A DNA stretch of 64,000 bases from a virus (IMGVR_UViG_3300042965_000182:1919-65918), one strand, 5' to 3'; positions 6,931 to 45,393 are shown, counted from the first letter of the stretch. Numbers and translations are program-made. Notes: generated by a model not told the origin, from the letters alone.

Positions 6931-8727
6931 ATGTTTTTGAATAAGAAGGAAATTAAGTGGGAAGACTATCTTGTCAGTAAACTTTTTACCTTTGAAGAGT
7001 TTTTAGAGAAAGTTCTTAATGAACAATTGGATTATCCTCAGTATTTAGAAGCAAAAAATGTTTTAGTTGACGGTAAAGATGTTTGGTCTTGGAAGAGAGA
7101 CAAAAACCTTTTTGTTTGGCTTTGGGGTAAAAATTCAGGTAAAGGAACAGTTGCTGTTGTTTTAGAACTTTATGCTTTTTATTCACTTATAAATATGTTT
7201 TCACCGCAAAAGTTTTTCGGTATTTTACCAAACGATGAACTTGCTTTTGTAAATGTTGCTTTATCAGGAGACCAATCAAGAGTAAACATTTTTGACAGGA
7301 TAAAAAACAGGTTATTAAAGTCAGAGTATTTTAGACAGAATTATACAATTTTAGAAGCAGGTAAAAGGGTTTCAAATGGTTTAAAAGGAACAATAGAAAT
7401 TTCACAAAAAACAATTACTTTTAAGGAGAAGAACATTAGGATATATTCAGAGCATTCAGAATACGAGCATTGGGAAGGCAAAAATGTAGTGTTTTTTGTA
7501 TTAGATGAGTATTCAGGAGCAAAAAGTCAAGTTGAATTAGAATGGGCAAAAAATGTATTGAATTCGCTTGTTACATCAAACAGGGATTTGCCTTATATAG
7601 GGATAGTGATGTCATATATGAGATTAGACAAAGAGTTTGATGCTACTGCTCAGCTTGTTTCAAGGATAGAAAGGGGTGAAATAGAAAAGGCGTATGCTTC
7701 AACGAGATTTACTTGGGAAATGAGACCGAGCAAGTATCAGGGGGAGTTTTTTATTTATACTGACAAAGAAAATGGTCAAAGTTATTTTGTTCCTGTTGTT
7801 TTAAGACAGCAATTTCAAATAGATGAAGATTCAGCAAGGAGGAAGTATCTTTGTATTAGTGGTAAAAAGGCAGAAATGGAAATTTTCTTTAATTATCCTG
7901 AAAGGGTTTTAGATTGTATAGATGTAAACAGGAAAGGAGCAATTGACTATCAAGAGGAATTTATAAAAGTTCAAGATAGAACTCTATTTAGGTTAAAAAT
8001 TAATTCTGTTAAATTAATACCTGACAGGTTTTATGTTATAGCAATAGATAAAGGTGAAAAGAATTCAGATACAGCTCTTGCTATTGGTTGTAAAGAAAGA
8101 GTTAATATTAATGGTAATTTTCTTGAGAAAGTAGTGATACTTGATACACTTGTTTGGAGACCCTTAAAGGAATTGAATGTAGTTGTTGACACTGATAATG
8201 TAAACGAGGTTCTTTTTGAGATTTTAAAACATTTGCCTAAAAGTCAGGTTCTTATAAGGATAGACCATTGGCAAAGTTCAGATTTAGTTAATAGATGTTT
8301 GAAGCAAGGTTATAAGGCAGTTCAAAAGAATGCTTCAAGAGATGGTTATGAAACTTTAAGGGTTTTAGTTGAGAATATGCTAATTTCATTTCCTGATACA
8401 CAAATAACAAGGCAGGGTTATATTCAGATTAAGTATTTGAAAGAAAAAGCAAGTTCAAAGCCAAGAGTTTCGGTTGGTAAACAGGATATAGTAGATGTTT
8501 GGGCAGAAGTTTGTGAAGAACTTGTTAATTTAAACACTATAAAGATGAGTTTAGGCAAGGTAATTCAAAGACCTTCCCCGTTTACAAATCCTATCAGTCA
8601 AAAGATGAGGTTAGAAGTAGAAAACTTTTTTATAAAACAATTTTCAAAAGTTAATCCTTTCCCTGTTGGAAGGATTATACCAGGTTCTTTATGGATTGAA
8701 AGAATTAAAAGGAGGGTAGGAGAATGA
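6931..8727 (+). CDS. terL: Terminase large subunit
   Basis: Walker A-like WGKNSGKG, Walker B FFVLDE, RNase H-fold nuclease motifs IAIDKG, IDHWQS and KQDIVD. Confidence 0.88.
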   Translation: MFLNKKEIKWEDYLVSKLFTFEEFLEKVLNEQLDYPQYLEAKNVLVDGKDVWSWKRDKNLFVWLWGKNSGKGTVAVVLELYAFYSLINMFSPQKFFGILPNDELAFVNVALSGDQSRVNIFDRIKNRLLKSEYFRQNYTILEAGKRVSNGLKGTIEISQKTITFKEKNIRIYSEHSEYEHWEGKNVVFFVLDEYSGAKSQVELEWAKNVLNSLVTSNRDLPYIGIVMSYMRLDKEFDATAQLVSRIERGEIEKAYASTRFTWEMRPSKYQGEFFIYTDKENGQSYFVPVVLRQQFQIDEDSARRKYLCISGKKAEMEIFFNYPERVLDCIDVNRKGAIDYQEEFIKVQDRTLFRLKINSVKLIPDRFYVIAIDKGEKNSDTALAIGCKERVNINGNFLEKVVILDTLVWRPLKELNVVVDTDNVNEVLFEILKHLPKSQVLIRIDHWQSSDLVNRCLKQGYKAVQKNASRDGYETLRVLVENMLISFPDTQITRQGYIQIKYLKEKASSKPRVSVGKQDIVDVWAEVCEELVNLNTIKMSLGKVIQRPSPFTNPISQKMRLEVENFFIKQFSKVNPFPVGRIIPGSLWIERIKRRVGE

Positions 8728-15133: not shown

Positions 15134-15290
15134 TGGTAGTTTTTTTGAAGAATGGAAGAAATGGAAAAAGAAAAAAGAAAGTTAAGGAATTTTTTAAAAA
15201 ATAATAAAATCATTAAAAGGGGTGAATTATGAAGAATAAGTTCATAAAAATAAGTGAAGAAATAATAAAAATAGCGGAGGAATTGTTAAG
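15134..15290 (+). repeat. Degenerate, internally deleted duplicate of 16530-16880
   Basis: 15134-15159 matches 16530-16554; 15155-15290 matches 16755 to about 16885. Confidence 0.7.
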
Positions 15291-16431
15291 GTTTACAAAA
15301 AAGGGAATAGCAGAAGAGGAACTCAAGGAATGGGAAAGGTATGGTTTTACTCCTGATGAAGCAAGGGAATGGAAAGATGCTGGTTTTACTCCTGAAGAAG
15401 CAGAAGAATGGATAAGGGGAACTGACCGTCCTGACATAGCAAAGTTATGGAGAGACTATGGTTTTACAGTTAGTGAAATGGTCACATGGTATAATGTATT
15501 TGGTTATCATCCTGAGAACATAAGAAAGTTTTTAGAGCAAGGTTATACTTATGAGGAGATAAAAAGATGGTCAATATATGGTTTCAAAGACCCAAAAGAA
15601 GTAGAAGAATGGATGAGTTATGGTTTTAGTTTAGAGGAAGCAGGAAAGTGGAAAAAACATAAATTTACTCCTGAAGAGGCAAAGAGATGGAAAGAATATG
15701 GTTATAACATAGACGAAGCAAAGTATTGGAAAAAATACGAGTTTACTCTTGAAGAAGCAGAAAGATGGAAGGGTGCAGGGTTTAAACCTTGGGATGCAAG
15801 AAAATGGATAGAACTTGGTTTTACTCTTGAAGAAGTAAAAAAATGGAAAGAATGGGGTTTTACTCCTGCGGGAGCAGTTAGTTGGACAGAGCATGGTTTT
15901 ACTCCTGAAGAAGCATTTGAATGGAGTGCATATGGTATTGATTCACCATGGGAAGTAAAAAGATGGAAAACATTTGGTTTCACTACTCCTGAGGAAGTAA
16001 AAAAATGGAGTAAATATGGATTTGGTCCATTTGATGCAAAAAAATGGAAAGACCGTGGATTTACTCCCAGTGAAGCATATAGAAGGGCAAAAATATTCCT
16101 CAGAAAAAGGGCTATTGATAGAGTAGAAGTAAAAGAAGGGTATGATTGGCATTGGGGGTTTGATGACCGAATTAATTATAAATTTGAAATAGAGAGAATA
16201 GAAGGTGATTATACTGTGGAAAAAATAGATGAAAGATTTGCTCCAGGTGTAGGTTTTGAAGGTGTTGGAGGTAAGGATTATGCCATTTACGAAGTGAAAA
16301 TATATAAGAACTTTATAGGCAGAATAATCCAATATTCAAAATTGAGAAGAAGTAAAACTTGGAAGGAAGAAATTCTTTTTGATAACACATACATTGCAAA
16401 AGAATTAGAAAGAGAAGAGGAGGAGGAATGA
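15229..16431 (+). CDS. Leader-bearing Trp-repeat protein (13-14 aa WxxxGFTPEEAxx repeats) with an unrelated C-terminal domain
   Basis: N-terminal IKISEEIIKIAEELL leader, roughly 19 repeats, RKRA linker, then a non-repeat tail. Confidence 0.8.
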   Translation: MKNKFIKISEEIIKIAEELLRFTKKGIAEEELKEWERYGFTPDEAREWKDAGFTPEEAEEWIRGTDRPDIAKLWRDYGFTVSEMVTWYNVFGYHPENIRKFLEQGYTYEEIKRWSIYGFKDPKEVEEWMSYGFSLEEAGKWKKHKFTPEEAKRWKEYGYNIDEAKYWKKYEFTLEEAERWKGAGFKPWDARKWIELGFTLEEVKKWKEWGFTPAGAVSWTEHGFTPEEAFEWSAYGIDSPWEVKRWKTFGFTTPEEVKKWSKYGFGPFDAKKWKDRGFTPSEAYRRAKIFLRKRAIDRVEVKEGYDWHWGFDDRINYKFEIERIEGDYTVEKIDERFAPGVGFEGVGGKDYAIYEVKIYKNFIGRIIQYSKLRRSKTWKEEILFDNTYIAKELEREEEEE

Positions 16432-17765: not shown

Positions 17766-19553
17766 ATGGCAACAATTACAGCAATAAGGTCAGGTAATTG
17801 GTCAGACCCAAACATTTGGGACTTAGAGAGAATACCACAAGATATGGATGATGTTGTAATTTCTAATGGTTGTATTGTTGTTTACGATTTTGACATGTCT
17901 GATGATAACCAGTTTCCCAATGGCGTGAACACCATATACCTGAATGGCTCTTCAGCTTTTACTAAACTTGTTGTTCATCGCACTCGGAACACTTACTTAA
18001 AGTTTTATTCCTCCATTAGAGGTGGAAATGGGTTTTACAATTGGTTTGATTGGGGGAAAGTTGACGACCCTGTTTTAGCAGACAAATGTGTTATAGAAAA
18101 AAGAGGCGCAAATGCTTATGTTGGCGGTAATTATGCTCATCCGACAATAACTTTTTATGGGAAAGACCCTGGTGTTGTTAAGTCTTCTTTGACTGCTGAT
18201 GCTTCTGCTGGTAGCAATGTTATATATGTAGATGTTTCTTTTGGTTTTTCTTTAAATGTTGGTGATGAAATCTTTTTGGAAGGTATAACAAATGATAAAA
18301 GTCAGGTAGAGTTTCACACAGTTGCTTCGTTCAATCCCAGCACTGGTGAAGTTGTTTTGAGAAACAATCTTGCTTATAATAAACAAAAAGGAGCAAGAGT
18401 TTGGAAGTTAACAAGGAATGTTTTGCTTCTGTCAAAACTTTCTTCTGGGTCAAGGTTTCTTTATACTATAGCTCCTTGGCAAGTTTCAAAGTGGGGTTGT
18501 TTTCAACTGAAAGATGAAAATTTTGTTATTTCAAACATAGTGGATAGTGTAAGTTTTTTCACTTTTGAGAAAGCGGTGTTTATTACAAATCATATGTGGG
18601 CATTTAATTATAATGTTTTTGTAGACAGTTTTATTTACTGCAATGATTTTCAGTCAATTAACAATGTCCTGCAAACTTCCTGCCTTGTAGGACACGCAGG
18701 TTGGGGTGGTAATAGTTATGAAAGTGAGATAATAAATTGTTCTTCTACTGTTGTTTGGCAATGTGTTAACAGCAGAGTGAAAGCAACAGAAATAGATTTT
18801 AGGAATTGTTCTTATGTAAACACTCAAATTTCTACTGATTATGGCTGGAGTATTTACTTTTCAAATCAAAAAGGTTTTCTTAGGTCTGATATTGATTATT
18901 TTGATTTTTTAACAAGTAAAGTAATGTCTAGAGAAGCACAAGTAGAATATTCCCATATAGTTCAAATGGGAAAAAACATTTTCAATTTTGTTAATGTTGC
19001 TGGTTGGCAAAGGTGGTCAAATGGTATTTTAGAAATGAACTTTCCTTGGACAGGTGAGTGGGTTAACCAATGGTATTATTGGAATGATGAAGGTGGTCTT
19101 TGGTGGAATTGGTATATAAGGATTGATGTTGAAACAGAGCCCGTCCAGTATACGAGGAAGATAAAAGTAAAAAAGACGAGGTCATTAACTAATGAATACA
19201 TTAGACCACAAATTCGTGTTTTTAAAGGTAAACTTGAAATTGGCGGTATTAAAACAAGAAGGTTATTACAAATGTCTGAACTTTCAAATCTTCTTATTCA
19301 GCATATAGTAATGCCTGATACAACGAATGAATGGGTAGAATTAACAGTAGATTTTACAGCAACAGAAACAAGTGAGTATACAATTCAAATTTTTGCTGGT
19401 AAAACCTTTGAGGAGAACAATTATTCTGTTTATTGGGAAGTTAATCCTTTGGATGAGAATTTTTTTAGTATTTTAAAAGAGAAAGAGATTTATTTTGTTC
19501 AAAGTATGGATGTTTTAGATATAAGTGATGTTTATGAGATAATAGAAATTTAA
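17766..19553 (+). CDS. Virion fibre/receptor-binding-like protein with G8-like N-terminus
   Basis: AIRSGNWSDPNIW...IPQDMDDVVI start, LTADASAGSNVIYVD module, beta-rich body. Confidence 0.6.
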   Translation: MATITAIRSGNWSDPNIWDLERIPQDMDDVVISNGCIVVYDFDMSDDNQFPNGVNTIYLNGSSAFTKLVVHRTRNTYLKFYSSIRGGNGFYNWFDWGKVDDPVLADKCVIEKRGANAYVGGNYAHPTITFYGKDPGVVKSSLTADASAGSNVIYVDVSFGFSLNVGDEIFLEGITNDKSQVEFHTVASFNPSTGEVVLRNNLAYNKQKGARVWKLTRNVLLLSKLSSGSRFLYTIAPWQVSKWGCFQLKDENFVISNIVDSVSFFTFEKAVFITNHMWAFNYNVFVDSFIYCNDFQSINNVLQTSCLVGHAGWGGNSYESEIINCSSTVVWQCVNSRVKATEIDFRNCSYVNTQISTDYGWSIYFSNQKGFLRSDIDYFDFLTSKVMSREAQVEYSHIVQMGKNIFNFVNVAGWQRWSNGILEMNFPWTGEWVNQWYYWNDEGGLWWNWYIRIDVETEPVQYTRKIKVKKTRSLTNEYIRPQIRVFKGKLEIGGIKTRRLLQMSELSNLLIQHIVMPDTTNEWVELTVDFTATETSEYTIQIFAGKTFEENNYSVYWEVNPLDENFFSILKEKEIYFVQSMDVLDISDVYEIIEI

Positions 19554-19571
19554 TAAATAGAAGGAGTAAAT

Positions 19572-20333
19572 ATGGCTTATGATGAATTTGGTTGGATTAT
19601 AAACACAGAAAGAGATACACAATTACCAAAAGATTATGGTGATAGTTGTTTCTTTATGGGTTTACAGACATTGAATTTTATTTTACAAAATCAAGTGAAT
19701 AAGGCAAAGATACTTTATGAAAGGGTAAGAGAATGGAATTTTATCAGGCATCCTTCTGTAAAGTGTATTGGTAGCAGTTATTATAACAATCAAACTTCTT
19801 ACGATATGATGGTGATTTGGGATTACATAGCAAGCAGATATTCTGTTTTTGGTTTTGATTATCCACCTTTTCATTACAGAAAAAGTAAATTTTTAACAGG
19901 TAGATTTAGACATCCATTAATGTATATTTTGCCTATTGGTTTTCTCATTTTGTTTACACTTTTAGTTGTTTTAAAATTTAAGAAGTTAGCAGAGAAATGG
20001 TTTTTTGGTAAAAGATTTAACAAATTACATATTTTAATGGTTTATCTTGCTATTGTTTACGAAAGGACAAAAAATATTTGGTTTTTGAAACATTACAGAA
20101 AATTAGTTAAGGTGATAGAAGGTTATTTGAATTATGAACATTACTTTTTTAGGTATCTTGCTCATTTACCAGTTATGAAGAGTTGGAGACCGCGACATAA
20201 CTGTTGGGAGTGGGTTTTTCAAAGAGATTTAAGGTTTGGTTGCCATCCAGAAAATCATTCAATACAATTTCATTATGAAGAAATAAATGGTAAAAAATTA
20301 GATTTATCGGAGCAGTTCTATGAGTTTGTATAA
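19572..20333 (+). CDS. Hypothetical protein with one TM helix
   Basis: AAGGAG RBS; hydrophobic ILPIGFLILFTLLVVL; overlaps the decarboxylase start. Confidence 0.6.
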   Translation: MAYDEFGWIINTERDTQLPKDYGDSCFFMGLQTLNFILQNQVNKAKILYERVREWNFIRHPSVKCIGSSYYNNQTSYDMMVIWDYIASRYSVFGFDYPPFHYRKSKFLTGRFRHPLMYILPIGFLILFTLLVVLKFKKLAEKWFFGKRFNKLHILMVYLAIVYERTKNIWFLKHYRKLVKVIEGYLNYEHYFFRYLAHLPVMKSWRPRHNCWEWVFQRDLRFGCHPENHSIQFHYEEINGKKLDLSEQFYEFV

Positions 20334-20844
20334 GGATTTAAAAGGTTATTGGACTTTTATTTATGGTAAAATAGAAGCAGAATACGAACAGGTCGCTTTT
20401 GATTTAATTTTAAAAGATTTTGGCATTGAAAATTACAACATTGTTAAGATTTCCTCAATTTTACCAAAAGGATTTAAATATACAAATACTATAAAAGGTT
20501 TACCAGAAGAAGGCGAAATTCTTTATATGGCTTATGTTTACAAGTTTTTTACAAAAGAGGAAGTCATAAAAAATTTTGACAAAAAGTTTTCAATAGGTGT
20601 TTTAGTTGTTGAACCAGAAAACAAAGAGCAAACTGGTTTAATTTTAGAACTCAGCGATTTTTGTGATAAACAGACACTTGAAGAAAAGTTGGAATTACAG
20701 GCAAGGTATCTTTCAGCAATAAGGAGAAAGATAGAAGTAAAAGAAGTAAGGAAAAAGATTATTGAAACGGATTTTTTGACAAAAATCCATAAGAAAATGT
20801 TTTTCAAGCCATTTGGTATGTTAGTTGGTGTTTTGCTTTGGTAA
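20320..20844 (+). CDS. pdaD: Pyruvoyl-dependent arginine decarboxylase (PvlArgDC family)
   Basis: AFDLILKDFGIENYNIVKISSILP matches the family signature, including the Ser-Ser autocleavage site; GLILE retains the conserved Glu. Confidence 0.8.
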   Translation: MSLYKDLKGYWTFIYGKIEAEYEQVAFDLILKDFGIENYNIVKISSILPKGFKYTNTIKGLPEEGEILYMAYVYKFFTKEEVIKNFDKKFSIGVLVVEPENKEQTGLILELSDFCDKQTLEEKLELQARYLSAIRRKIEVKEVRKKIIETDFLTKIHKKMFFKPFGMLVGVLLW

Positions 20845-20845
20845 A

Positions 20846-22171
20846 ATGGCAAGGTTTTTGATTGTTGACAACTCTTTGGCTTTTGAAGTAGCAAGAAGGT
20901 TAAAAGAAGAAGAACACAATGTCAAATATTTTTCTACTTGGAAAAGGGTAGCAATTTTAGAAGAAGATGTAAGGTATATGGAAGGATTTGATAAATATTT
21001 TGGTATAGAAAGAGTTTCTGATTATTTATCTCATACTGATTGGGCTGACGCTATTATTTTTACTGATGTAAATTTTGGTGAAGAAAAAGATTGGTTAAGG
21101 GAAAAAGGTTATCCTGTTTTTGGTGCTTCAAAAGTTGGTGAAGATTTAGAAATTGACAGAGAAAAAGGTAATGAAAGTTTTAAAAAGTTAGGTTTAAAAC
21201 TTATACCTCAGAAAAAATACAGAAATCCACAAGAGGCATTAAAAGATGTAAAAGAAGGAAAAGGTTATGTTATAAGGTTAACATCAGGTTTGGAAGGTGA
21301 AATAGCAAGAACTTTTGTTGCTGAATATTCAGAAGTAGCAAAGTATTGGTTGGAAACCCTTACTGGTAAAGGTTATGATGAAGAAGTAATTTTACAGGAA
21401 CTTATTGAAGGAATAGAGGTGTCGGTTGGTGGTTTTTTCAATGGTAAGGAATGGGCTACTTTACCTTGTATAGTTTTTGAAGAAAAGAAATCTTTGGCTT
21501 GGGGTATGGGTTTTCTTTGTGGTGAAACAGGTTCTACTTTATATTTTGGTGATGAAGGTATTTTTATTAACAAGGTTTACAAGAAAATGGAAGAATATTT
21601 AAGGGGTATAAATGCTGGTTGTGGAAATTATGACATTAATACGATAATAACTTTTGATGGTGAAATTTATCCACTTGAATGGACTTGTAGGTTTGGTTTT
21701 CCAACCATTTACATTCAGCATCCACTTTTTGAAGATTTTGGCGAACTTCTTTTGTCTTGTGTAAAAGGTAAAAAATATAAGAAAGGGTTAAAGACTGACT
21801 GGGCAATTGGAGTTTGTTGGTGTGCTGGAACCCATCCTCATTCAAGTTTAAGTAAAGAGATTGATGGTGTTCCCATACTTGGTGTTTTAGATTGTATAAA
21901 AGATTACAAATTTTACAGAGATGATAAGTATCTTGCTATTGATAGTATTGGTTATGATGATGGTAAAACATATTTAACACCTTCACCTGGTAGAACTGTG
22001 ACCTGTGTTGGTGTTGGTAAGACTTTAAAAGAGGCACAAGAAAATGCTTTGGAAGTAGCAAGGAGGGTATATATACCAGAAGGTTATTATAGAAAAGATA
22101 TTGGTGATAGAGTTTTTTATCAGCAAGTAATTTTGAATGAATTAGGTTTTTTAAAAAAAGAAGTTTTATAA
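20846..22171 (+). CDS. PurD-like ATP-grasp amide ligase (substrate probably not phosphoribosylamine)
   Basis: VFGAS...LEIDR, QELIEGIEVS, EEKK...GETG, LEWTCRFGFP, YYRKDIG. Lacks the GSGGREHA motif. ATG at 20846. Confidence 0.8.
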   Translation: MARFLIVDNSLAFEVARRLKEEEHNVKYFSTWKRVAILEEDVRYMEGFDKYFGIERVSDYLSHTDWADAIIFTDVNFGEEKDWLREKGYPVFGASKVGEDLEIDREKGNESFKKLGLKLIPQKKYRNPQEALKDVKEGKGYVIRLTSGLEGEIARTFVAEYSEVAKYWLETLTGKGYDEEVILQELIEGIEVSVGGFFNGKEWATLPCIVFEEKKSLAWGMGFLCGETGSTLYFGDEGIFINKVYKKMEEYLRGINAGCGNYDINTIITFDGEIYPLEWTCRFGFPTIYIQHPLFEDFGELLLSCVKGKKYKKGLKTDWAIGVCWCAGTHPHSSLSKEIDGVPILGVLDCIKDYKFYRDDKYLAIDSIGYDDGKTYLTPSPGRTVTCVGVGKTLKEAQENALEVARRVYIPEGYYRKDIGDRVFYQQVILNELGFLKKEVL

Positions 22172-22181
22172 GGAGGTGATT

Positions 22182-23060
22182 ATGGATGGTAGAATAATAA
22201 AAATAAGTGAGGAGTTAATAAAAATAGCAGAGGAGTTAATGAAGTTAGCACCAAGGAGACCTGACAGGTATAGAGAATACGAAGAAGAATTAGAAAGAAT
22301 AAAGAGAATTCCACCAGAAGAAGCAATGAGGAGAATGCATGTAAAAGACAAGGAACTTATAATTGTTCAGAGTGAGCTTGCAAAAGTATTAGAGAAAATA
22401 CTTGCTGATGAAAAAGCAATAAGAGAAGAATTGAAGAGATTATCTACACAGGAAAAAGAACTTGGCGAACTTATTAAAAAATGTATAGAGGAAAACTTAC
22501 ACATTAAGTTAAAAGAAGAAAAGACTTTTGATGAAGCAATAGAGTATCTTAACAGGGTAAAAACTGAAAGGGAAACAGCAGAAGGACTTATTATTCAAGC
22601 AGGTTCTATGGCCATGAGAATTTCTAAATCATATATGTTTACAATAGGTGGAAGGGAAAAAATACTTGGTTTAGCAGAAGACATAAAAGAGGAACTATTA
22701 AGAGTATTCTCTGACAATTTACCGATTATAGAAAGGATTATGGATGTTATTTTATCAAAGATAAAGGAAGCAACAAAAGTGACGGAAACAATAAGAATTG
22801 AAATTAATACAGCAGATAAACTTGTAAAAGAAGTTGAAACTTCACCAGAAGAAGGCAGAACTGCTTCCTTGTCAAAAGATGCTGAGACAATTTTAAGCAG
22901 AGTTTGGAATTTCATTAAGGGTATTTTCAAAAGGATTGTTGATAGTCTTCGTTCGCTTTTTGGTATATATTCAGATGTTAACGATGATTTAACAACTTTA
23001 AATGATAGTTTATTAAGAATAGAAGAAGTTGTGAGAAAAGCAGAAGAAGCAGTAGTGTAA
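22182..23060 (+). CDS. Leader-bearing coiled-coil protein
   Basis: IIKISEELIKIAEELM leader; AGGAGGTGA RBS; RTAS motif before a C-terminal amphipathic helix. Confidence 0.7.
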   Translation: MDGRIIKISEELIKIAEELMKLAPRRPDRYREYEEELERIKRIPPEEAMRRMHVKDKELIIVQSELAKVLEKILADEKAIREELKRLSTQEKELGELIKKCIEENLHIKLKEEKTFDEAIEYLNRVKTERETAEGLIIQAGSMAMRISKSYMFTIGGREKILGLAEDIKEELLRVFSDNLPIIERIMDVILSKIKEATKVTETIRIEINTADKLVKEVETSPEEGRTASLSKDAETILSRVWNFIKGIFKRIVDSLRSLFGIYSDVNDDLTTLNDSLLRIEEVVRKAEEAVV

Positions 23061-23062
23061 AC

Positions 23063-23467
23063 ATGATAGAGGTATGGTATAAAAGTAATCTCATATTTAC
23101 AATAGAAAGAGCAGACATTGAGTATTTCTTTTTAGTAAAAGATATTTTCAAAGGGAACATTACGCCTTTTAAACTTATGCCGATTAGAGTTGAACCTCAA
23201 CCAGAAGATTTTTATATTGCCTGGTATCCTTATGGTTTATGGATTTACAAAGATTTAGAAGTTTATCCTATTTCAACAGAGGAACTTAAATTGCTTTTAG
23301 AAAAAGACGAAAAACTTACTATTATTTGGGAAAAAGAAGAAAAAAGACAGGTATTTTGGATTACAGATTTTGCTCTCAGTCAATATATGATTAATGAAAA
23401 CATTGAATATAAGACACCAGAGGGAAAGTTTTTATTTGATTTAATAAAAAAGGTAAGGCAAAAATGA
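23063..23467 (+). CDS. Hypothetical protein
   Basis: ORF tiles between its neighbours. Confidence 0.55.
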   Translation: MIEVWYKSNLIFTIERADIEYFFLVKDIFKGNITPFKLMPIRVEPQPEDFYIAWYPYGLWIYKDLEVYPISTEELKLLLEKDEKLTIIWEKEEKRQVFWITDFALSQYMINENIEYKTPEGKFLFDLIKKVRQK

Positions 23468-24375
23468 AAAGAAGTTCCATTTGGGATTATCCGAAGCCTG
23501 GTCTTGACCCTGATGTTTGGGACGAAGAAGGTAAACTTTATAATGGACATAAGAAGATGATTTTGTCGCATCTATATGGTGCTCTTATTGGTTTTGGTTT
23601 TAAAAACTTTGAAGAATGGATAAAAGACATTGTGATTATAGGTTCATTAACTTCTTATCAGTATAATAGATTTTCAGACCTTGATGTCCATATAATTATA
23701 GATGTTAACAAGTTTATGGAAGCAGAAAAACTTAACAAGGTTTCACCTGAAAGATTATTAGAATATTTAAACGAGGATTTAAGGAAGTTTTTGAATGTAA
23801 AAGCGCAAATAAAGTTAGACAAGACAGAGCATCCTGTTGAGTATTATTTTGAAAGTGAAGAGGTTATTCCAGCATCAAAAGATGAAGGTGTTTACTCACT
23901 TTTTACTGACACTTGGATTAAACCACCACGCACTTTAGATTTAGATTTTAATCCTGATGTTTATTATGGTGAAAGAAGAAAGGTGATTGAAGAATTTGTT
24001 AGAGAGTTTGACATAAGGGTAATGGATATAAACAGGTTGGTAAAAGATGTAGATTTTTTACAAGAAACTTTGGAACAGATGCCAGAAGTAGCAAAAAGGA
24101 AGTGGAAAAAGTATTTAGATGAAAAGATAAAAGTAATAGAAGAGGAAATAAAGGATTTAATTCAAAAGACTGATGAAGTTATAAAGGCAAGGAGAGAAGA
24201 GTATGAAAGAGAAAGTGATGCTAATTTACTTTTTAAGTTTTTACAAAGGTATCAATATATTTGGTTAGCAAAGCAATTAGAAAAAGCGTTAGAGTTAGAA
24301 AAAGAAGAAATGATTGAAAAAGTAAAAGACATTTTAGTAGAGTTTCCTTATAAAACGAGTAAAGGTGAAAGTTAG
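23464..24375 (+). CDS. Pol-beta superfamily nucleotidyltransferase
   Basis: IIGSLTSYQYNRFSDLDVHII (hGS...DxD), third carboxylate in HPVEYY, helical C-terminal domain. Confidence 0.8.
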   Translation: MKRSSIWDYPKPGLDPDVWDEEGKLYNGHKKMILSHLYGALIGFGFKNFEEWIKDIVIIGSLTSYQYNRFSDLDVHIIIDVNKFMEAEKLNKVSPERLLEYLNEDLRKFLNVKAQIKLDKTEHPVEYYFESEEVIPASKDEGVYSLFTDTWIKPPRTLDLDFNPDVYYGERRKVIEEFVREFDIRVMDINRLVKDVDFLQETLEQMPEVAKRKWKKYLDEKIKVIEEEIKDLIQKTDEVIKARREEYERESDANLLFKFLQRYQYIWLAKQLEKALELEKEEMIEKVKDILVEFPYKTSKGES

Positions 24376-29279: not shown

Positions 29280-31091
29280 ATGAAAAAGTTAGGTGTTGGT
29301 AATGTTGTTCCAACTTGGTATGGTGGCTCAATAGCAAGAGCCTCTCTTGGTGTAAGAACAGCACAACTAACTTATTATCCACCAAGATGGTTTTCTCCTT
29401 TACTTTCATTTGTTCATTTTTATGTTCCGTGGGACAGGGCTACTTTATATCAATGGATAAGGTATTTTGATACTTGGCACGCTGTTGTTGGTGCTTGTAT
29501 AGACATACATACGATGATGCCTTTATCAAGGTTTTCTTTAAGAGGTGTTCACGACCCGACTATTTTAAGGGTTTACGAGGAATGTTGCGAAGAATTAAAA
29601 GCATTTTTGCTTATGTATTCTCAACTATCAGAGTTTTGGACTATTGGTGAAGTTTTCACTTTACTTTACTGGGATGACAAATTAGGTATTTTTACTGATG
29701 CTGAAATTCTTATGCCTGAATACATTGAAATTAAAAGTTTACCTTTTATGGGTTCTCTTGATATTGAGAAAAATATTTACGAACTTGTTTTAGACCAGTT
29801 TACTTTGGAAATGTTAGAGACACCTGACCCTGATGTTCAAAAGATGTTGATGAAGTTAGACCCTGCTTTACTTGAAACAATCAAAAAGAAAGGAAGGTTA
29901 AGGTTAGATGGCAATTTGTTAATGGTAATGATTAAAAAAAGACATATGTATCAAGATAGGGCTCAACCTATTCTTTTAAGGGTAATGAGGGAACTTATTT
30001 ATGAAAGCAAATTATTAGAAGCAATGTATACAATAGCAGACAGGCATGTTAATCCGAAAGAGATTTGGAAGATAGGTAATGACAATTTCCCAGCTGACCA
30101 AGCACTTTTAGATGCTTATGAAGAACTTATAAGGAATGCTGAACAGCAACCACTTTTTACTTTGGTTGTTCCACATACAGTTTCACTTGATATAGTTGGC
30201 GCTACTGGTAAATTTCCAAAATTATCAGATGAATTAGATTGGGTTGAAAAAAGAATTTTAACTGCTTTACTTTTGAATAAGGCTGTGATACACGGAGAAG
30301 GACCAAATTTTGCTACTGCTTCTGTTGCTATGAGGGCGTTAATGCAAAGGTATATGGAAGTAAGGGCTATGTTAGAAGAGGAATGGACAACGAAAGTGTT
30401 TTTACCTATTGCTTTAAAACACAATTTCTTTGAGGTTACGCAAGCAGAATTAGAACATGGTGTCAGAAGACCTTATAAAGAAAGGAAGCCAATTTTACCT
30501 TATTTTGATTGGCATTATAAAGCAAGGTTATTAGATGACAGTTCATTTAGAGATAGAATAATAGAACTTTACAAAGCAGGTAAGATACCTTTGAAGATAT
30601 TGACTGATGTTCTCGGTTTAGATTACGAATATGTAAAGGTTTACAAAGAAAGGGAAGAAGGGACAATTGTTGACCCGTTCTATGAAGAATGGAGAAAAGA
30701 AGTAATAAAGAAAGGTTTAGAAGGTATTGTTCCAGCACCAAAAGGTGTCAGGAGTTCAGTTGATGAAGTAGAAAAGAAAAATTTAAAGGAAGCACTTGAA
30801 GAAGCAGACAGAAAATTTGAAATTTTCAAGAAGTGGTTAACAAAAACAAGTTTAAAGGAAAATGGCAGAAAGCCTGTTGGTGAAAAAGAAGAAAGTGATG
30901 ATGATTATGAAAAGAAGGAGAAAAAAGTTAAAAAATTGTTAGAAGAAGCAGAAAACATAGAGTTTGATTGGACAACGAGAGGTGGTTTAATAAGGAAATT
31001 AAGGATAGCAGAAGAAATTTTTAAAAATGGAAATTTAGACCTTTTAGCAACAATTTTACCCAGAAAAGAAGAAGAAAACAAAGGAGGGTAA
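29280..31091 (+). CDS. Portal protein
   Basis: WIRYFDTWHAVVGACIDIHTMMPLS, IGEVF, KEIWKIG and GEGPNFATASVA motifs; 603 aa; upstream of protease and capsid. Confidence 0.85.
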   Translation: MKKLGVGNVVPTWYGGSIARASLGVRTAQLTYYPPRWFSPLLSFVHFYVPWDRATLYQWIRYFDTWHAVVGACIDIHTMMPLSRFSLRGVHDPTILRVYEECCEELKAFLLMYSQLSEFWTIGEVFTLLYWDDKLGIFTDAEILMPEYIEIKSLPFMGSLDIEKNIYELVLDQFTLEMLETPDPDVQKMLMKLDPALLETIKKKGRLRLDGNLLMVMIKKRHMYQDRAQPILLRVMRELIYESKLLEAMYTIADRHVNPKEIWKIGNDNFPADQALLDAYEELIRNAEQQPLFTLVVPHTVSLDIVGATGKFPKLSDELDWVEKRILTALLLNKAVIHGEGPNFATASVAMRALMQRYMEVRAMLEEEWTTKVFLPIALKHNFFEVTQAELEHGVRRPYKERKPILPYFDWHYKARLLDDSSFRDRIIELYKAGKIPLKILTDVLGLDYEYVKVYKEREEGTIVDPFYEEWRKEVIKKGLEGIVPAPKGVRSSVDEVEKKNLKEALEEADRKFEIFKKWLTKTSLKENGRKPVGEKEESDDDYEKKEKKVKKLLEEAENIEFDWTTRGGLIRKLRIAEEIFKNGNLDLLATILPRKEEENKGG

Positions 31092-33431: not shown

Positions 33432-33971
33432 ATGAGAAGTGAGATAATAAAAATAAGTGAAAAGCTGGTAAAAATAGCAGAAGAACTATTAAGGTTTACG
33501 AAAAGAGGAATGACAGAAGAGGGGTTTGAAGAGTGGGAAGAGTATGGTTTTACTCCTGAAGAGATAGAAGAATGGGAACATTATGGATTTACACCTGAAC
33601 AGGCACTTGAATGGGATGAACATGGTTTTAGCGCTTACAGAGCATTTCAATGGGATAAAATAGGTTTTACACCTGATGAAGCAAAAGAATGGAGTGATTA
33701 CGATTTTGAACCTTTTCAGGCATACAAATGGAAAGAAAAAGGTTTTGAACCAAGAGAAGCAGATGAGTGGGCAAAATGTTTTTTCACAGCTGAAGAAGCA
33801 AAGAAGTGGAAAGAATATGGTTTTGATGACCCTCATGATGCTGAAAGTTGGCGTGATTATCATTTTACACCTGAAAAAGCAGAAGAATGGAAAGGCAAAG
33901 GCTATGAACCTGATGAGGCATACAGGATAAGAAAAGAAACAGAAGAAATTGAAGAGGAAGATTGGAGGTAG
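33432..33971 (+). CDS. Leader-bearing Trp-repeat protein (acidic paralogue)
   Basis: IIKISEKLVKIAEELLRFTKRG leader; about 10 GFTPEEAxxW repeats. Confidence 0.8.
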   Translation: MRSEIIKISEKLVKIAEELLRFTKRGMTEEGFEEWEEYGFTPEEIEEWEHYGFTPEQALEWDEHGFSAYRAFQWDKIGFTPDEAKEWSDYDFEPFQAYKWKEKGFEPREADEWAKCFFTAEEAKKWKEYGFDDPHDAESWRDYHFTPEKAEEWKGKGYEPDEAYRIRKETEEIEEEDWR

Positions 33972-33977
33972 TAAAAT

Positions 33978-34568
33978 ATGAAGGATAAAATAATAAAACT
34001 AAGTGAAGAGTTAATAAAGATAACAGAAGAGTTATTAAAGGTTATTGGACATAATGAATTAGAAGAATTTAACGAATGGAAACTGCATGGTTTTACTATT
34101 GAGGAAGCAAAAAAATGGAAAAAATATGATTTTAGTCCTTGGAGAGCGAAGGAATGGAAGAGTTATGGATTTACACCTGAGGAAGCAAAAAAATGGAGTG
34201 ATTATGGTTTTGAATTTTACAAGGCAAGTGAATGGAAGGAATTTGGTTTTTCTCCTGAAAGAGCGAAAGAGTGGAGAAACTACCATTTCTTTAATCCTGA
34301 GGAGGCGTATGATTGGTGGAAACATGGTTTTACTCCTGACGAAGCAGAAAAATGGTATGATTGTATATTTTCTCCTGATGAAGCATTTAAGTGGATACAA
34401 ACAGGATATTCTCTTGAAGATGCAATGGAATGGAGGAGATTTGGTTTTAGACCAGAGGAAGCGAAAAAATGGGATAGGTTTGGTTTTAAACCTAAAAGAG
34501 CAAGACAATGGATGGAAAAAGGATTTACACCAGAAGAAGCATATAGATTGAAAAAGAGAAGGAGATAA
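33978..34568 (+). CDS. Leader-bearing Trp-repeat protein (more basic paralogue)
   Basis: IIKLSEELIKITEELL leader; about 12 repeats. Confidence 0.8.
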   Translation: MKDKIIKLSEELIKITEELLKVIGHNELEEFNEWKLHGFTIEEAKKWKKYDFSPWRAKEWKSYGFTPEEAKKWSDYGFEFYKASEWKEFGFSPERAKEWRNYHFFNPEEAYDWWKHGFTPDEAEKWYDCIFSPDEAFKWIQTGYSLEDAMEWRRFGFRPEEAKKWDRFGFKPKRARQWMEKGFTPEEAYRLKKRRR

Positions 34569-35079: not shown

Positions 35080-36687
35080 ATGGCATTTATTAAGTATGCA
35101 ACAGCAAAAATAATAGCAAGTTATGAGAATGAAGTAGCACTTTTAGAAAGTAATCCTGAATTAGAAAAGGTTTTAAATACATTTAAGGTGATAAAGTTAG
35201 ACCCTTCAAGGTATATGTATTTAAGGAACAGGGCAATCAGTTCATTAGAGACTTGGGGTTGTAATAGGAATGCTGATGGATTTCCTCGTATTGAATTACA
35301 GGAAAATCATCACACTTTCATTAATTCAAGGGTTTCAGTTGACCATAAAGACAATATTATTGTTGGTGTTGTAGTTGACAGTTATTTTGTTCCACCAAAA
35401 GTAGAAATAAAAGACGATATGATTATAAGGTCTGGTGATTATGTTGAGAACATTTTAGCACTTGATAAAAAGGTATTAGAAAGTTATAAGCCTGATGGTA
35501 AAAATTCACTTTTAGATTTAATTGTAAACGGAATAGTAACAGATACAAGTATGGGTGCTATTGTTGGTTATTCCATTTGTTCAGTGCCTACTTGTATGAA
35601 TGTTGCTCATACAGAAAGCGAATATTGTGAGCATATAAAGTCAAAGAAAGGTTCAGTTATAAAACTTGCTTCTGGTATTGATGTGCAGATTTTTGAAATT
35701 TGCAGACAGGTTACATTTTTTGAAGACAGTATTATTGTTCCGCTTGCTTATGGTGGGCTTGCTGGTGGTGAAGGTGCCGACCCTAACGCCAAGTTTTTAG
35801 AAAAGATTGCTACGACACCTTTAAAAACTTACATTGTTTATAGGGACAGGTTTTATTCTGATTTTACTAAAAAAGCACAAATAGAAGAAAGACCACAGGT
35901 TTTAATACCTGAGAAAAAGGTATTAAGGAAAGAGTTTAAGGACGAAGACATAGAGTATACAAAGCAACAATTAAAGAAAAATTTAGAGGAAGAACTATCA
36001 AAAACGATAGTAGTTGAAAAAGAGGAAGTTTCAGATGTTGTAGATTATCTTATAGAACTTCTTAAAAAGGGAACAGAGTTTAATGAAGCGTTAAAACTTG
36101 CTTGGGAACACTTTAAAGGTTTAAAAGAGAAAACAGCACAGGAAAAGAAAAAAGAGGTAATAGTCGTAGATATAGATGGAACACTTTTTGATGTTTCTCA
36201 TAGGTTAAAATACATTGAAAGTCCTCAAAAAGATTGGAAAAGGTTTTTCAGCGAAGAAGAGGTTTCAAAGGACAAGCCTTATCCATCAGTAGTTGAATTT
36301 GTAAACACTTTAAGAGAAGAAACAGGTTTACCAATGGTTGTTTTAACAGGTAGACCTGAAACTTTAAGGGAATTAACAGAGAAACAATTAGAAGAAGCAG
36401 GTGTTAACTATGATGAACTTATAATGAAGCCAAAAGAAAGAAGTTTTGAGAAGGCTGTTTCATTCAAAAAAGATGTTTTAAAGAACTATGTTCCTGTTTA
36501 TTTTATAGATGACGATTACAATAATTTAGCAGTTGTAAAGAAAGAGTTTCCTGATGCTAAGGTGTATCACGCTGATGATGGTAGAATAAAAGAGTTTTTT
36601 ATTGGTGAAGTACTTGAAGAAAAAGTCAGTTTTTGGAAAAGAATATCTTTCAAAAAGGAGGGTAAATGGACAAGAAAATCACTATAA
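35080..36687 (+). CDS. Prohead (capsid maturation) protease fused to a C-terminal PNKP-like HAD phosphatase
   Basis: NRNADGFP..EL, VDH, TSMG and CS..C..C.H in the N-terminal domain; DIDGTL, LTGR, K and IDDD in the C-terminal domain. Confidence 0.8.
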   Translation: MAFIKYATAKIIASYENEVALLESNPELEKVLNTFKVIKLDPSRYMYLRNRAISSLETWGCNRNADGFPRIELQENHHTFINSRVSVDHKDNIIVGVVVDSYFVPPKVEIKDDMIIRSGDYVENILALDKKVLESYKPDGKNSLLDLIVNGIVTDTSMGAIVGYSICSVPTCMNVAHTESEYCEHIKSKKGSVIKLASGIDVQIFEICRQVTFFEDSIIVPLAYGGLAGGEGADPNAKFLEKIATTPLKTYIVYRDRFYSDFTKKAQIEERPQVLIPEKKVLRKEFKDEDIEYTKQQLKKNLEEELSKTIVVEKEEVSDVVDYLIELLKKGTEFNEALKLAWEHFKGLKEKTAQEKKKEVIVVDIDGTLFDVSHRLKYIESPQKDWKRFFSEEEVSKDKPYPSVVEFVNTLREETGLPMVVLTGRPETLRELTEKQLEEAGVNYDELIMKPKERSFEKAVSFKKDVLKNYVPVYFIDDDYNNLAVVKKEFPDAKVYHADDGRIKEFFIGEVLEEKVSFWKRISFKKEGKWTRKSL

Positions 36688-43521: not shown

Positions 43522-45393
43522 ATGGCACAAAGAGACATTATTGTTAGGAGGGTTGTTGGTGCAAGGGCTGTTCCAGCCCCTGTTGGAATACCCGTTATTA
43601 TTCCTGCTGTTATTTGTAGAACACTTGGTAAAAAGACACAAGAAGTTGAAAGTATAACAAGGACACCACCTGGAACTGATTATGTTTGGATTGACAGGTT
43701 AAAAGAAGATACAAAATTACCTTTAAATGAAATAAACGATATAGAGTATGTTTACACTTATACTGAGGGCGATAAAACTTATAGTTTTAAATATGTTTTC
43801 AAAAGAGGAATACATTTCAGGTTTGTTAAGTTAAAAGACCAGGATACACCTGAAGTTGAAGAATATTTACCATTTGAAAATCTTCACATTACTGATTTAA
43901 AAGAAGGTGAAACACGAATTAGGTATGGTATTGATTGGTCGCAAGCACCACTTTTACCACCAGTTGAATTTGAAGCAGAACCAACTCAAAATGGAACTGG
44001 AACAAAGTTTTCTTCTGGTGATTATGAAATTAGGGTTTTTGCTGTAAGTTTACAAGCACCGACATCGGGTAGCGGGGGTCTATATCTTGTTGGTCAATCT
44101 ATTACTAAATTGCTAACATTATCAGAAGATGCTTATATTAGGGTGTCTTGGAAAAGAGTTGATTATGTTAAAGGTTATATTATTGAAATAAAACGGGTTG
44201 GAGGTTCTACTTACAGGTTTTTTGTAAATCCGCATGTTACAGATAGGATTTTTATAGTAGAACTTACAGCGATAACATATATTTCAGGTGGTAAACAAGT
44301 TCCTGAAAGCAACAAAGATTACACTTTGAATTACAAGTATTTAGTAAGGTTAGTTAATCAACCAGTTCTTTATTCAGCAATAGAACAAGTAAGGGAAGAC
44401 CACGGATTAGGTTCAGAAGCATACAATATTGCAAGGTATTTTCTTTCAACTGAACTTGGTAATGCTCCATTTTTAGTGATAGTTGGAGTAGAAGAAGATA
44501 GTTTAGCAGGTTATTTGAATGCTTTAAAAACACTTGAAAGTGTTAATTGTCATTTAATCTTTGCTACTTATTATGGAACTGATGTTTTAGATTTATGGGA
44601 TGCTATGTATCAGCATTGTTTGGCACTTTCTGACCCTGTTACAGGTCAAAGAGAAAGGTATGCTGTTTTTGCTTTGAAAAATGGTATTCAGTGGTATGAC
44701 AATGAACTAAAAACTACTTTACAGCATTTTAGAGCAATGGAAGGTAAAGGTAAAAGGGCTTTCCTTGTTGTCTTTGATGGTGGAGAAATTACACTTAACA
44801 CTTGGATAGAACAAGATGGTTCAATAACAAAAGACAAAAAAGTGTTAACGCAGAGTTTTGACGACATTACATCTCTATTTGGTGCTATGCTTGTTTTTGC
44901 AAGGTATTGTTCATTTAGAGACCCTGCTTCTTCATTAACAGAAAAATCTATACCTGGTTTAACATTTCAGAAGAATTCTTGGGGTGATGATGTTTACTTA
45001 TATTTAAGGGATTTAGGTGCTTTTGTTGTAAGGAACGATTTAGGTTCAGCAGTTGTTGATTTAGATATAAATATGTCGTATGGTTTACTCGGTTTAAATG
45101 ATTCACAACTACCTATCACAATGACAGAAGATTGGATGAAGCAAGATTTAAGAAGTAAGTTAAAAGTTTTCAGAGGTAAAAAGAATATAGAGTTAAGGTT
45201 AGCAAGTGTGATAAACTATATAAAACTAATTCTTGATTCGTATGTTTCTGCTGGTTTAATAACTTCATATGATGAAGGTTCAATAAAAGTTGAAATACTT
45301 TCAACAGGACAACTAAAAGGTTATTTCAAATATACACCTGTTATAATTATCAATCAAATCTTGTTTGAATACGATTTTGAGTTTATTTTATAA
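43522..45393 (+). CDS. Contractile tail sheath protein
   Basis: YLNALKTLE, QRER, SLTEKSIPG and C-terminal YTPVIIINQILFEYDF motifs. Confidence 0.85.
   Translation: MAQRDIIVRRVVGARAVPAPVGIPVIIPAVICRTLGKKTQEVESITRTPPGTDYVWIDRLKEDTKLPLNEINDIEYVYTYTEGDKTYSFKYVFKRGIHFRFVKLKDQDTPEVEEYLPFENLHITDLKEGETRIRYGIDWSQAPLLPPVEFEAEPTQNGTGTKFSSGDYEIRVFAVSLQAPTSGSGGLYLVGQSITKLLTLSEDAYIRVSWKRVDYVKGYIIEIKRVGGSTYRFFVNPHVTDRIFIVELTAITYISGGKQVPESNKDYTLNYKYLVRLVNQPVLYSAIEQVREDHGLGSEAYNIARYFLSTELGNAPFLVIVGVEEDSLAGYLNALKTLESVNCHLIFATYYGTDVLDLWDAMYQHCLALSDPVTGQRERYAVFALKNGIQWYDNELKTTLQHFRAMEGKGKRAFLVVFDGGEITLNTWIEQDGSITKDKKVLTQSFDDITSLFGAMLVFARYCSFRDPASSLTEKSIPGLTFQKNSWGDDVYLYLRDLGAFVVRNDLGSAVVDLDINMSYGLLGLNDSQLPITMTEDWMKQDLRSKLKVFRGKKNIELRLASVINYIKLILDSYVSAGLITSYDEGSIKVEILSTGQLKGYFKYTPVIIINQILFEYDFEFIL

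Follow-up and report, generated by a model that had tools for sequence, protein, structure and literature searches.

A phage-borne PF01862-type arginine decarboxylase beside a PurD-like ATP-grasp ligase that is not a GAR synthetase

We analysed a window of 64,000 nucleotides (IMGVR_UViG_3300042965_000182:1919-65918), taken from a single virus record of 65,918 bases, and focused on three consecutive genes on its plus strand. They encode a conserved helical protein, here called ORF-A (for open reading frame, ORF), a pyruvoyl-dependent arginine decarboxylase (ADC) and an ATP-grasp ligase with the PurD fold. The gene for ORF-A (253 aa) occupies positions 19572..20333, and a Shine-Dalgarno-like AAGGAG, read from the sequence on the same strand (19561..19566), lies 5 nt upstream of its ATG. 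The ADC proenzyme, a 174-aa member of PF01862 from a divergent phage clade, is encoded on the plus strand at 20320..20844, in a frame that overlaps that of ORF-A by 14 nt. Within it, the codons of Ser45-Ser46 (20452..20457, plus strand) mark the predicted site of self-cleavage and pyruvoyl formation, as they align to Ser52-Ser53 of the M. jannaschii enzyme (PDB 1n2m, 2qqd). The third gene, at 20846..22171 on the plus strand, encodes the ligase, a member of a non-GARS 'PurD-like' family. Its longest ORF spans 20825-22171 and begins with a TTG, which is also a possible start. The ATG at 20846 seems the likelier one, being placed one base past the ADC stop (TAAAATG) and agreeing with the 441-aa database form P0001.

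The initial annotation had described this locus as a tightly coupled run of three genes. All three ORFs are present at the coordinates given and point in one direction, and their frames do overlap or abut. However, such spacing is not special to the trio. The median gap between genes across the genome is 4 nt, the gap is 10 nt or less at 47 of the 80 junctions, and 24 of the 80 show overlap or abutment. As tight packing is the rule in this genome, the spacing of the trio says little about its function. We counted 37 promoter-like sites around the trio against 42.5±7.7 in shuffled sequence and two terminator-like sites against 3.5±2.3, which is no excess in either case, and the repeats within 19000-23000 are short and unremarkable.

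The ADC matched PF01862 with 64.6 bits (cut-off 22.7, E 1.3e-17) over profile positions 7-141 of 161. Besides the serine pair, the alignment to the M. jannaschii structures equates Asn40 with Asn47, Glu110 with Glu109 and Asp28 with Asp35. Asn47 and Glu109 of M. jannaschii are what we take to be the processing and catalytic residues. In an alignment of 34 sequences that includes canonical enzymes, Asn40, Ser45, Ser46, Gly65 and Glu110 are invariant, while Phe27, Asp28, Ile47, Pro49 and Arg135 are conserved in at least 90 %, with Asp28 sitting in a nearly invariant AFD motif. The earlier description of the gene as a PvlArgDC with intact Ser-Ser and Glu is borne out by these positions, to which Asn40 can be added, and judging from the alignment the product very probably processes itself and is active as an arginine decarboxylase. 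The protein scored below the NCBIfam equivalog cut-offs (TIGR00286, 48.9 vs 106.95; NF009064, 36.4 vs 207), and its identity to canonical PF01862 members is 23-33 %. On these profile scores it is a member of the PF01862 family, and the equivalog scores give no guarantee of its specificity.

Close relatives of this ADC are few. Its profile, searched against 1.84 billion representatives, gave 134 matches with E<=1e-3, of which three had E<=1e-30 and the next best 2.8e-14; going by these matches, the window ADC is part of a very small clade. Relatives of the phage type include P0067 and P0069 (the latter 47 % identical), and among the nine nearest cellular ADC clusters the sole named one comes from a WOR-3 bacterium. 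The IMG/VR scan with the alignment of phage-type ADCs (A3) recovered no relatives, and GenBank phages (INPHARED) gave no match to the ADC query. A scan of IMG/VR with a broad ADC alignment did recover one other viral PF01862 locus, L166. This is a myovirus-like contig of about 30 % GC, where a canonical PF01862 gene (L166:4842-5330, 142.6 bits) has a tail sheath gene downstream and neighbours that show no clear Pfam family. There is no ligase within the 13 kb of L166, which suggests that an ADC can serve a phage without the ligase. A full-text literature search, in which the virosphere survey was covered by its main text, returned no description of a PF01862-type ADC in a phage.

The ligase has the fold of PurD and lacks its substrate sites. 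In Pfam it passed the GARS_C cut-off narrowly (35.6 bits, cut-off 34.8), stayed under the cut-off for GARS_A and did not match GARS_N (PF02844), and against the purD equivalog TIGR00877 it reached 81.8 bits where the cut-off is 288. The AF2 model (pLDDT 86.1) shows the full four-domain PurD architecture. Of the 15 best PDB rows listed by Foldseek (ranks 1-12 and 14-16), the first 14 were GAR synthetases, with E values from 6e-25 to 1e-19, and the last was a biotin carboxylase domain; TM values to PurD structures were 0.67-0.70, and GAR synthetases outranked biotin carboxylase, PurT and PurK. The ligase also has the C-terminal YYRKDIGDR motif in common with PurD. At the position of the GGREHA loop of true PurDs, the alignment places NSLAFEVA, and the RxGDPE motif (R-[LF]-G-D-P-E, PROSITE PS00184) is changed to RFGFPT, the family consensus being RFGYPT. 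The putative ATP-grasp core residues Glu198, Lys221, Asp270, Asn272, Glu285 and Arg289 are retained. Thr287 takes the place of the Asn of E-x-N, here as in the rest of the family, and the window ligase has Arg151 for the Lys of the V-K strand. The assignment of these residues to particular ligand contacts is in part our assumption.

The changed positions can be read against human GARS, where glycine is held by Asp217, Arg292, Asp295 and Glu297, and Arg13 and Glu14 belong to the sulfate/phosphoribosylamine site, according to the structural account in PMC2978367. Arg292 is kept in the window ligase as Arg289, Asp295 and Glu297 are replaced by Phe292 and Thr294, and the loop with Arg13 and Glu14 is gone. 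By alignment, then, the protein retains the predicted acyl-phosphate machinery and not the two substrate sites of PurD, and it is demonstrably not a GAR synthetase. The view of the initial annotation that this is a PurD-fold ligase devoid of the GSGGREHA motif holds on both counts. It was also right that the window carries no other purine genes, as none was found among its 81 non-nested plus-strand ORFs (80 were scanned with Pfam and one matches a PHROGs baseplate wedge).

The closest relative of the ligase, P0002, has 80 % identity and is followed by dozens of proteins at 25-33 % over the full length. Matches to 52 full-length members (P0003-P0054 and P0056; two intein-bearing rows with 49 % coverage and one 284-aa fragment were omitted) had E values from 3e-47 to 1e-24 and covered 92-98 % of the length. 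GARS_N is absent from all the listed family relatives and present in the true PurDs, which rank last among the matches. Two motifs characterise the family, PLE[WF]T.RFG[YF]PT and YYR.DIG.R (alignment A2), and the window ligase has both. The family is large and mostly viral: we found at least 181 relatives among 223 pattern-matched IMG/VR stretches and at least 566 among 600 genome stretches (contigs of one genome per species), and viral members make up 67-97 % of the nearest clusters in the ESM Atlas, one of which has 1,171 members. Among GenBank phages (INPHARED) the window ligase found one clear member, in an uncultured record, and seven other matches at 23-28 % identity over 75-77 % of the query, two over purD genes of Salmonella records and five unannotated. 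A typical member (L046) used as the query found the same uncultured record and one weak match. The presence of a single clear member in GenBank phage records may explain why the family has stayed uncharacterised.

Database sources label members of the family as phosphoribosylamine--glycine ligase. However, each of the five family-carrying cellular genomes that we checked (two Acidobacteriota, one Patescibacteria, one Aenigmatarchaeota and one Omnitrophota) carries a canonical, GARS_N-bearing PurD elsewhere, and this coexistence suggests that the family is a paralogue with another job. PADLOC assigned no defence-system family to any of the trio or to two other members of the ligase family. In a quick tree of the family, copies from the genomic loci L081-L160 that belong to very distant phyla are separated by branches of about 0.2, for instance Woesearchaeota with Brocadiaceae, or Bdellovibrionota with Acidobacteriota and Steroidobacteraceae, and such short branches suggest frequent horizontal transfer or carriage on mobile elements.

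The surroundings of the ligase in other genomes were also inspected. On many IMG/VR contigs of about 26-42 kb (L001-L080, e.g. L046:4439-7326), the ligase stands directly after a homologue of the DNA-ejection protein phrog_26400, and genes nearby in viral loci encode a small cupin, an Asp/Asn beta-hydroxylase-like protein, an SNF2 helicase, a VapE primase-helicase and a family A DNA polymerase. At cellular loci no cluster of neighbours was present at more than 6 of the 80, one antisense-ORF artefact excepted. The small recurrent neighbours there are heterogeneous and comprise GNAT Acetyltransf_6, alpha/beta hydrolase, cytidylate kinase, HIT and MiaB-like radical SAM proteins. Nine archaeal-labelled loci (e.g. 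L082:7290-8189, L153:6439-7347) have a protein of about 300 aa immediately after the ligase, which is of the GNAT Acetyltransf_6 type in five and a DUF1749 alpha/beta hydrolase in four. In three of the four DUF1749 loci (L150, L153 and L160; L134 ends earlier), an opposite-strand MiaB-like radical SAM gene comes next, and two (L150 and L160) have a class V aminotransferase upstream.

Regarding ORF-A, we found no Pfam, NCBIfam, PHROGs or PADLOC family. It has nine homologues at 42-85 % identity, and the alignment of the ten sequences has 52 columns without variation, many of them Asp, His, Arg or Glu, which makes the protein look like an enzyme and not a simple membrane anchor. The initial annotation took it for a transmembrane protein, and this is not established. 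There is one hydrophobic stretch at about residues 116-135, it is much less hydrophobic in several homologues, and the AF2 model (pLDDT 85.1, pTM 0.86), which is almost all-helical, places it inside a helical bundle. Foldseek searches of the PDB and BFVD libraries gave no match at E<=1e-3, the profile A4 had no match at E<=1 among PDB sequences, and the IMG/VR scan with the same alignment gave no relatives. In the ESM Atlas, ORF-A was close to viral clusters (0.88), and a weak lead to an alpha/alpha-toroid appeared at 0.81. The wide VIA-align search put (alpha/alpha)6 glycoside hydrolases (GH76, GH8, GH48 and GH9) at the top with Z from 8.2 to 6.5 over about 200 residues, and a Z of about 8 is below the telling level for helical proteins and may reflect a common helical arrangement only.

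In two other phage loci, L163 and L164, ORF-A lies a few genes after an endolysin that resembles L-alanyl-D-glutamate peptidase (PDB 2vo9, E 2.8e-7), and the genes in between encode a small Cys-rich protein and, in L163, also a membrane protein. L163 (12,151 bases) has 20 % GC and a 235-aa protein upstream. Because of this endolysin neighbourhood a relation to the envelope can be considered. We assign no function to ORF-A and regard it as a conserved helical protein that may be toroid-like and may be related to the envelope.

We then asked whether the three genes are linked elsewhere. In tblastn of 84 window ORFs against the 160 fetched ligase loci, the ligase matched at all 160 and was the only one to do so, with no ADC or ORF-A among the hits; profiles of ADC and ORF-A, run against ORFs of at least 80 aa from the same loci, gave no match either. 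The search from ORF-A returned five metagenome loci (L161-L165). One of them, L161, comes from a related lineage and contains the whole trio with identities of 70, 56 and 80 % for ORF-A, ADC and ligase, and its frames again overlap. The entries P0072, P0068 and P0002, for each of which the longest contig has 80,400 bases, have identities equal to those of the L161 trio and are probably from the same lineage. L162 and L165 end within ORF-A and are hence uninformative on linkage, and L163 and L164 carry ORF-A (54 % identity, 20-27 % GC) with no ADC or ligase downstream. The complex prediction for ligase and ADC scored 0.00 against a mark of 0.32, which is evidence neither way.

Recurrent linkage of ADC and ligase across unrelated genomes was thus not observed (none of the 160 ligase loci and not the single other viral ADC locus). 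The co-occurrence across phages, which the initial annotation had named as a check, fails outside one narrow clade, with L161 as the only other locus to pair the two genes. The block is inherited together in a narrow phage clade, and a shared pathway is not supported beyond adjacency in two closely related phages.

In our preferred reading, to which we give a probability of roughly 0.55, an agmatine-supplying auxiliary gene stands beside an independent orphan ligase, together with ORF-A, in an accessory block of a myovirus. The ADC proenzyme would cut itself between Ser45 and Ser46, with Ser46 becoming the pyruvoyl cofactor, and the enzyme would decarboxylate arginine to agmatine, an activity suggested by its catalytic residues. 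During infection this may serve to raise the agmatine pool of the host, agmatine being the entry compound of polyamine synthesis. The ligase would perform the carboxylate-amine ligation of its family. As it has neither the glycine nor the phosphoribosylamine site of PurD, it presumably joins some other carboxylate and amine, and as its family almost always occurs without an ADC, its function is most likely independent of agmatine.

Several points weigh against this reading. The independence of the ligase from agmatine is argued from distribution and not from chemistry. The scores of the ADC under both equivalog cut-offs mean that a changed amino-acid specificity is possible. The trio of L161 is intact, with other genes flanking it on either side than in the window, which gives the block the look of a functional cassette. 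Moreover, the window ligase has diverged strongly. In the quick tree it shares with P0002 its own long branch (2.63 changes per column), apart from both the viral and the 'genomic' clade, the true PurDs being on a branch of 6.71. Its identity to the best other members is 32-33 %, as compared to a mean column identity of 60 % in the family, and of 142 positions with a conservation of at least 90 % across 33 other members it keeps 77 and changes 65. Such divergence would fit the adoption of a new substrate, e.g. agmatine.

Some of these observations speak for a coupled pathway, in which agmatine made by the ADC, or a polyamine derived from it, would be joined by the ligase to a carboxylate on a small molecule, a cell-wall precursor or a protein, perhaps with the participation of ORF-A. 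This is close to the agmatine conjugation proposed by the initial annotation, and we regard it as unlikely, though it is the best of the alternatives. In its favour, the block was kept among rearranged neighbours in L161, the frames overlap or abut in both phages, and the ligase has changed strongly and sits on a long branch. It also has precedents, since ATP-grasp ligation of an amine made by a decarboxylase is described for MfnA/MfnD (PMC8141765), and clusters with a decarboxylase and ATP-dependent amide ligases make agmatine amides in the biosynthesis of E-64 (PMC12568646). However, the agmatine step of E-64 is described in that account as the work of an amide bond synthetase and not of an ATP-grasp enzyme. 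The distribution also points the other way, with no ADC near the ligase at any of the 160 family loci, no ligase in L166, and ORF-A without either partner in L163 and L164. Tight packing is the norm in the genome, and the adjacency, conserved in a single related lineage (56-80 % identity), may come from inheritance alone. From the original proposal, the intact catalytic residues of the ADC, the non-GARS nature of the ligase and the idea of a decarboxylase feeding an ATP-grasp ligase, which has a precedent in MfnA/MfnD, stand, and the use of agmatine by the ligase is what the 160 loci do not support.

A narrower form of this idea, which we consider slightly less probable still, is that in this small clade of hot-spring phages a strongly diverged branch of the ligase family was recruited to the agmatine of its neighbour. 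The block would then make a hitherto undescribed agmatine amide on a metabolite, on the carboxylate of a peptidoglycan precursor or on an acidic protein, and ORF-A, given its place near the endolysin in other phages, might act on the same envelope target.

Another explanation is that the ADC serves translation in an archaeal host, where agmatine would be converted to agmatidine on the tRNA-Ile for AUA codons, which are common at 30 % GC, and that the ligase is unrelated. Enzymes of PF01862 are typically archaeal, and agmatidine is formed from agmatine; the AT-rich genome (GC 0.28-0.36) and one ORF matching STIV_B116-like, a family named after an archaeal virus, would fit as well. However, the WOR-3 bacterium is the sole name among the nearest cellular ADC clusters, phages that share ORF-A carry a peptidoglycan endolysin, window ORFs match families of bacterial phages (Gp80 fibre and BppU_N), and there are no tRNA genes in the window, all of which makes an archaeal role of this kind very improbable. 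Hardly credible is the last option, a genuine but divergent GAR synthetase acting as a purine auxiliary gene, as viral 'purD' genes are taken to be in PMC12647753: the PurD fold, the GARS_C score just over its cut-off, the shared YYRKDIGDR motif and the database naming are outweighed by the low TIGR00877 score, the missing GARS_N and GGREHA loop, the replaced glycine-binding Asp and Glu of RxGDPE, the lack of other purine genes in the window, the canonical PurD present in 5/5 cellular genomes, and the judgement already passed on haloarchaeal PurD-like proteins with the same defects (PMC3261824).

The conjugation of agmatine or a polyamine to a modified DNA base, also raised in the initial annotation, found no support in the window, where Pfam detected no thymidylate-synthase-like gene, no hydroxymethylase and no other polyamine genes. 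We rejected DNA hypermodification for the want of a hydroxymethylase-type gene; the sole DNA-modification gene found is an ordinary N4C/N6A-type methyltransferase at the contig start. This first gene of the contig (L167:117-1196, before the window) is of the N4-cytosine/N6-adenine type, and its best PDB matches have E values from 1e-15 to 1e-10. The following ORF L167:1581-2609, which extends into the window at 2-694, had no match in the PDB search.

The genome around the trio has a GC content of about 30 %, and its plus strand carries nearly all genes. Among the window ORFs, Pfam and PHROGs recognised a terminase large subunit (6931-8727), a portal (29280-31091), a tail-sheath-like protein (43522-45393), a baseplate and a tape-measure-like protein. 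With terminase, portal, tail sheath and baseplate encoded, we therefore regard the virus as a myovirus. The stretch is present in public runs labelled as sediment and hot-springs metagenome: four sediment runs from one sample, which may be where this DNA came from, contain all the sampled words, and one hot-spring run contains 0.54 of them. No RNA run is among those listed for the stretch. The Rfam scan of the window gave no match.

Other window genes are listed here for completeness. Repeat-rich paralogues with a weak Decapeptide-repeat match in Pfam are found at 15229-16431, 33432-33971 and 33978-34568, and several copies of such paralogues flank the trio also in L161 and L162. Two genes downstream of the ligase, at 23464-24375, a 303-aa protein matches phrog_36119 (E 1.3e-14) and shows a weak nucleotidyltransferase-domain match under the Pfam cut-off. 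A protein with a C-terminal HAD/PNKP-type phosphatase domain is encoded at 35080-36687 and an SbcC/Rad50-like ATPase at 1066-2697. Single ORFs match PLD-like nuclease, STIV_B116-like and the 5'-3' exonuclease N-terminal domain, and others match the Gp80 fibre and BppU_N families.

If our preferred reading holds, the window ADC would extend the polyamine auxiliary metabolism of phages to hot-spring systems; given the stand-alone example in L166, the PF01862-type phage ADC is rare and not unique. As for the ligase, its family, going by sequence, lacks PurD-like binding of glycine and phosphoribosylamine and coexists with canonical PurD in the five genomes checked, so reading the annotations as purine synthesis is unwarranted, and 'viral purD' or GARS labels within this family should not be counted as such. 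The family invites enzymological study, and from its pairing with an ADC in a single clade comes the hypothesis that agmatine is the amine, although comparative genomics disfavours it. Were the recruitment of the diverged ligase to agmatine true, it would be the first phage-encoded pathway of amine conjugation and the first clue to a substrate in a viral ligase family whose members number well over a thousand.

Among known systems, the ligase is closest in structure to PurD (TIGR00877; PDB 2yw2, 2ip4 and 1gso), with which it shares the four-domain fold (Foldseek E 6e-25), the putative ATP-grasp core residues Glu198/Lys221/Glu285/Arg289 and the YYRKDIG motif, and from which it differs in lacking GARS_N, GGREHA, RxGDPE, the Asn of E-x-N and the context of the purine pathway. 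The haloarchaeal proteins Hlac_1553 and rrnAC0307, compared by their description only, resemble it in the missing GARS_N, the unconserved Asp of RxGDPE and the divergent N-terminal loop (PMC3261824). In that curation of archaeal purine synthesis from 2011, 'extra' PurD-like proteins with such defects were set aside as non-GAR synthetases. The non-GARS nature of PurD-like proteins was hence already noted for two haloarchaeal genes, and viral copies are still read as purine auxiliary metabolic genes in the relevant part of a virome paper (PMC12647753).

The decarboxylase and ligase as a pair recall MfnA/MfnD, the tyrosine decarboxylase and tyramine:L-glutamate ligase of methanofuran synthesis, where the amine from a decarboxylase is likewise joined to a carboxylate, as outlined in PMC8141765. 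Decarboxylase family, ligase family, amine and setting are all different there, and the likeness is one of analogy and not of membership. The ADC itself compares best with the PvlArgDC of M. jannaschii. Both belong to PF01862 and have matching Asn, Ser-Ser, Glu and Asp residues, hence the same chemistry is expected, whereas the window enzyme is encoded by a phage, falls in a tiny clade with 23-33 % identity to the canonical members and scores under the equivalog cut-offs. Phages are documented to encode another sort of pyruvoyl ADC as a polyamine auxiliary gene, derived from AdoMetDC/SpeD, e.g. in pelagiphage HTVC201P (PMC9992855), and in the main-text passages of that source the M. jannaschii-type enzyme is named only as a kinetic comparator. 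Like the window ADC, those are phage pyruvoyl enzymes for agmatine, and unlike it they have the AdoMetDC fold and not that of PF01862 (PMC9992855). Next to the AdoMetDC-derived ADCs of the 2023 virosphere survey, as presented in its main text, the archaeal-type PF01862 would thus be a second fold for arginine decarboxylation in phages.

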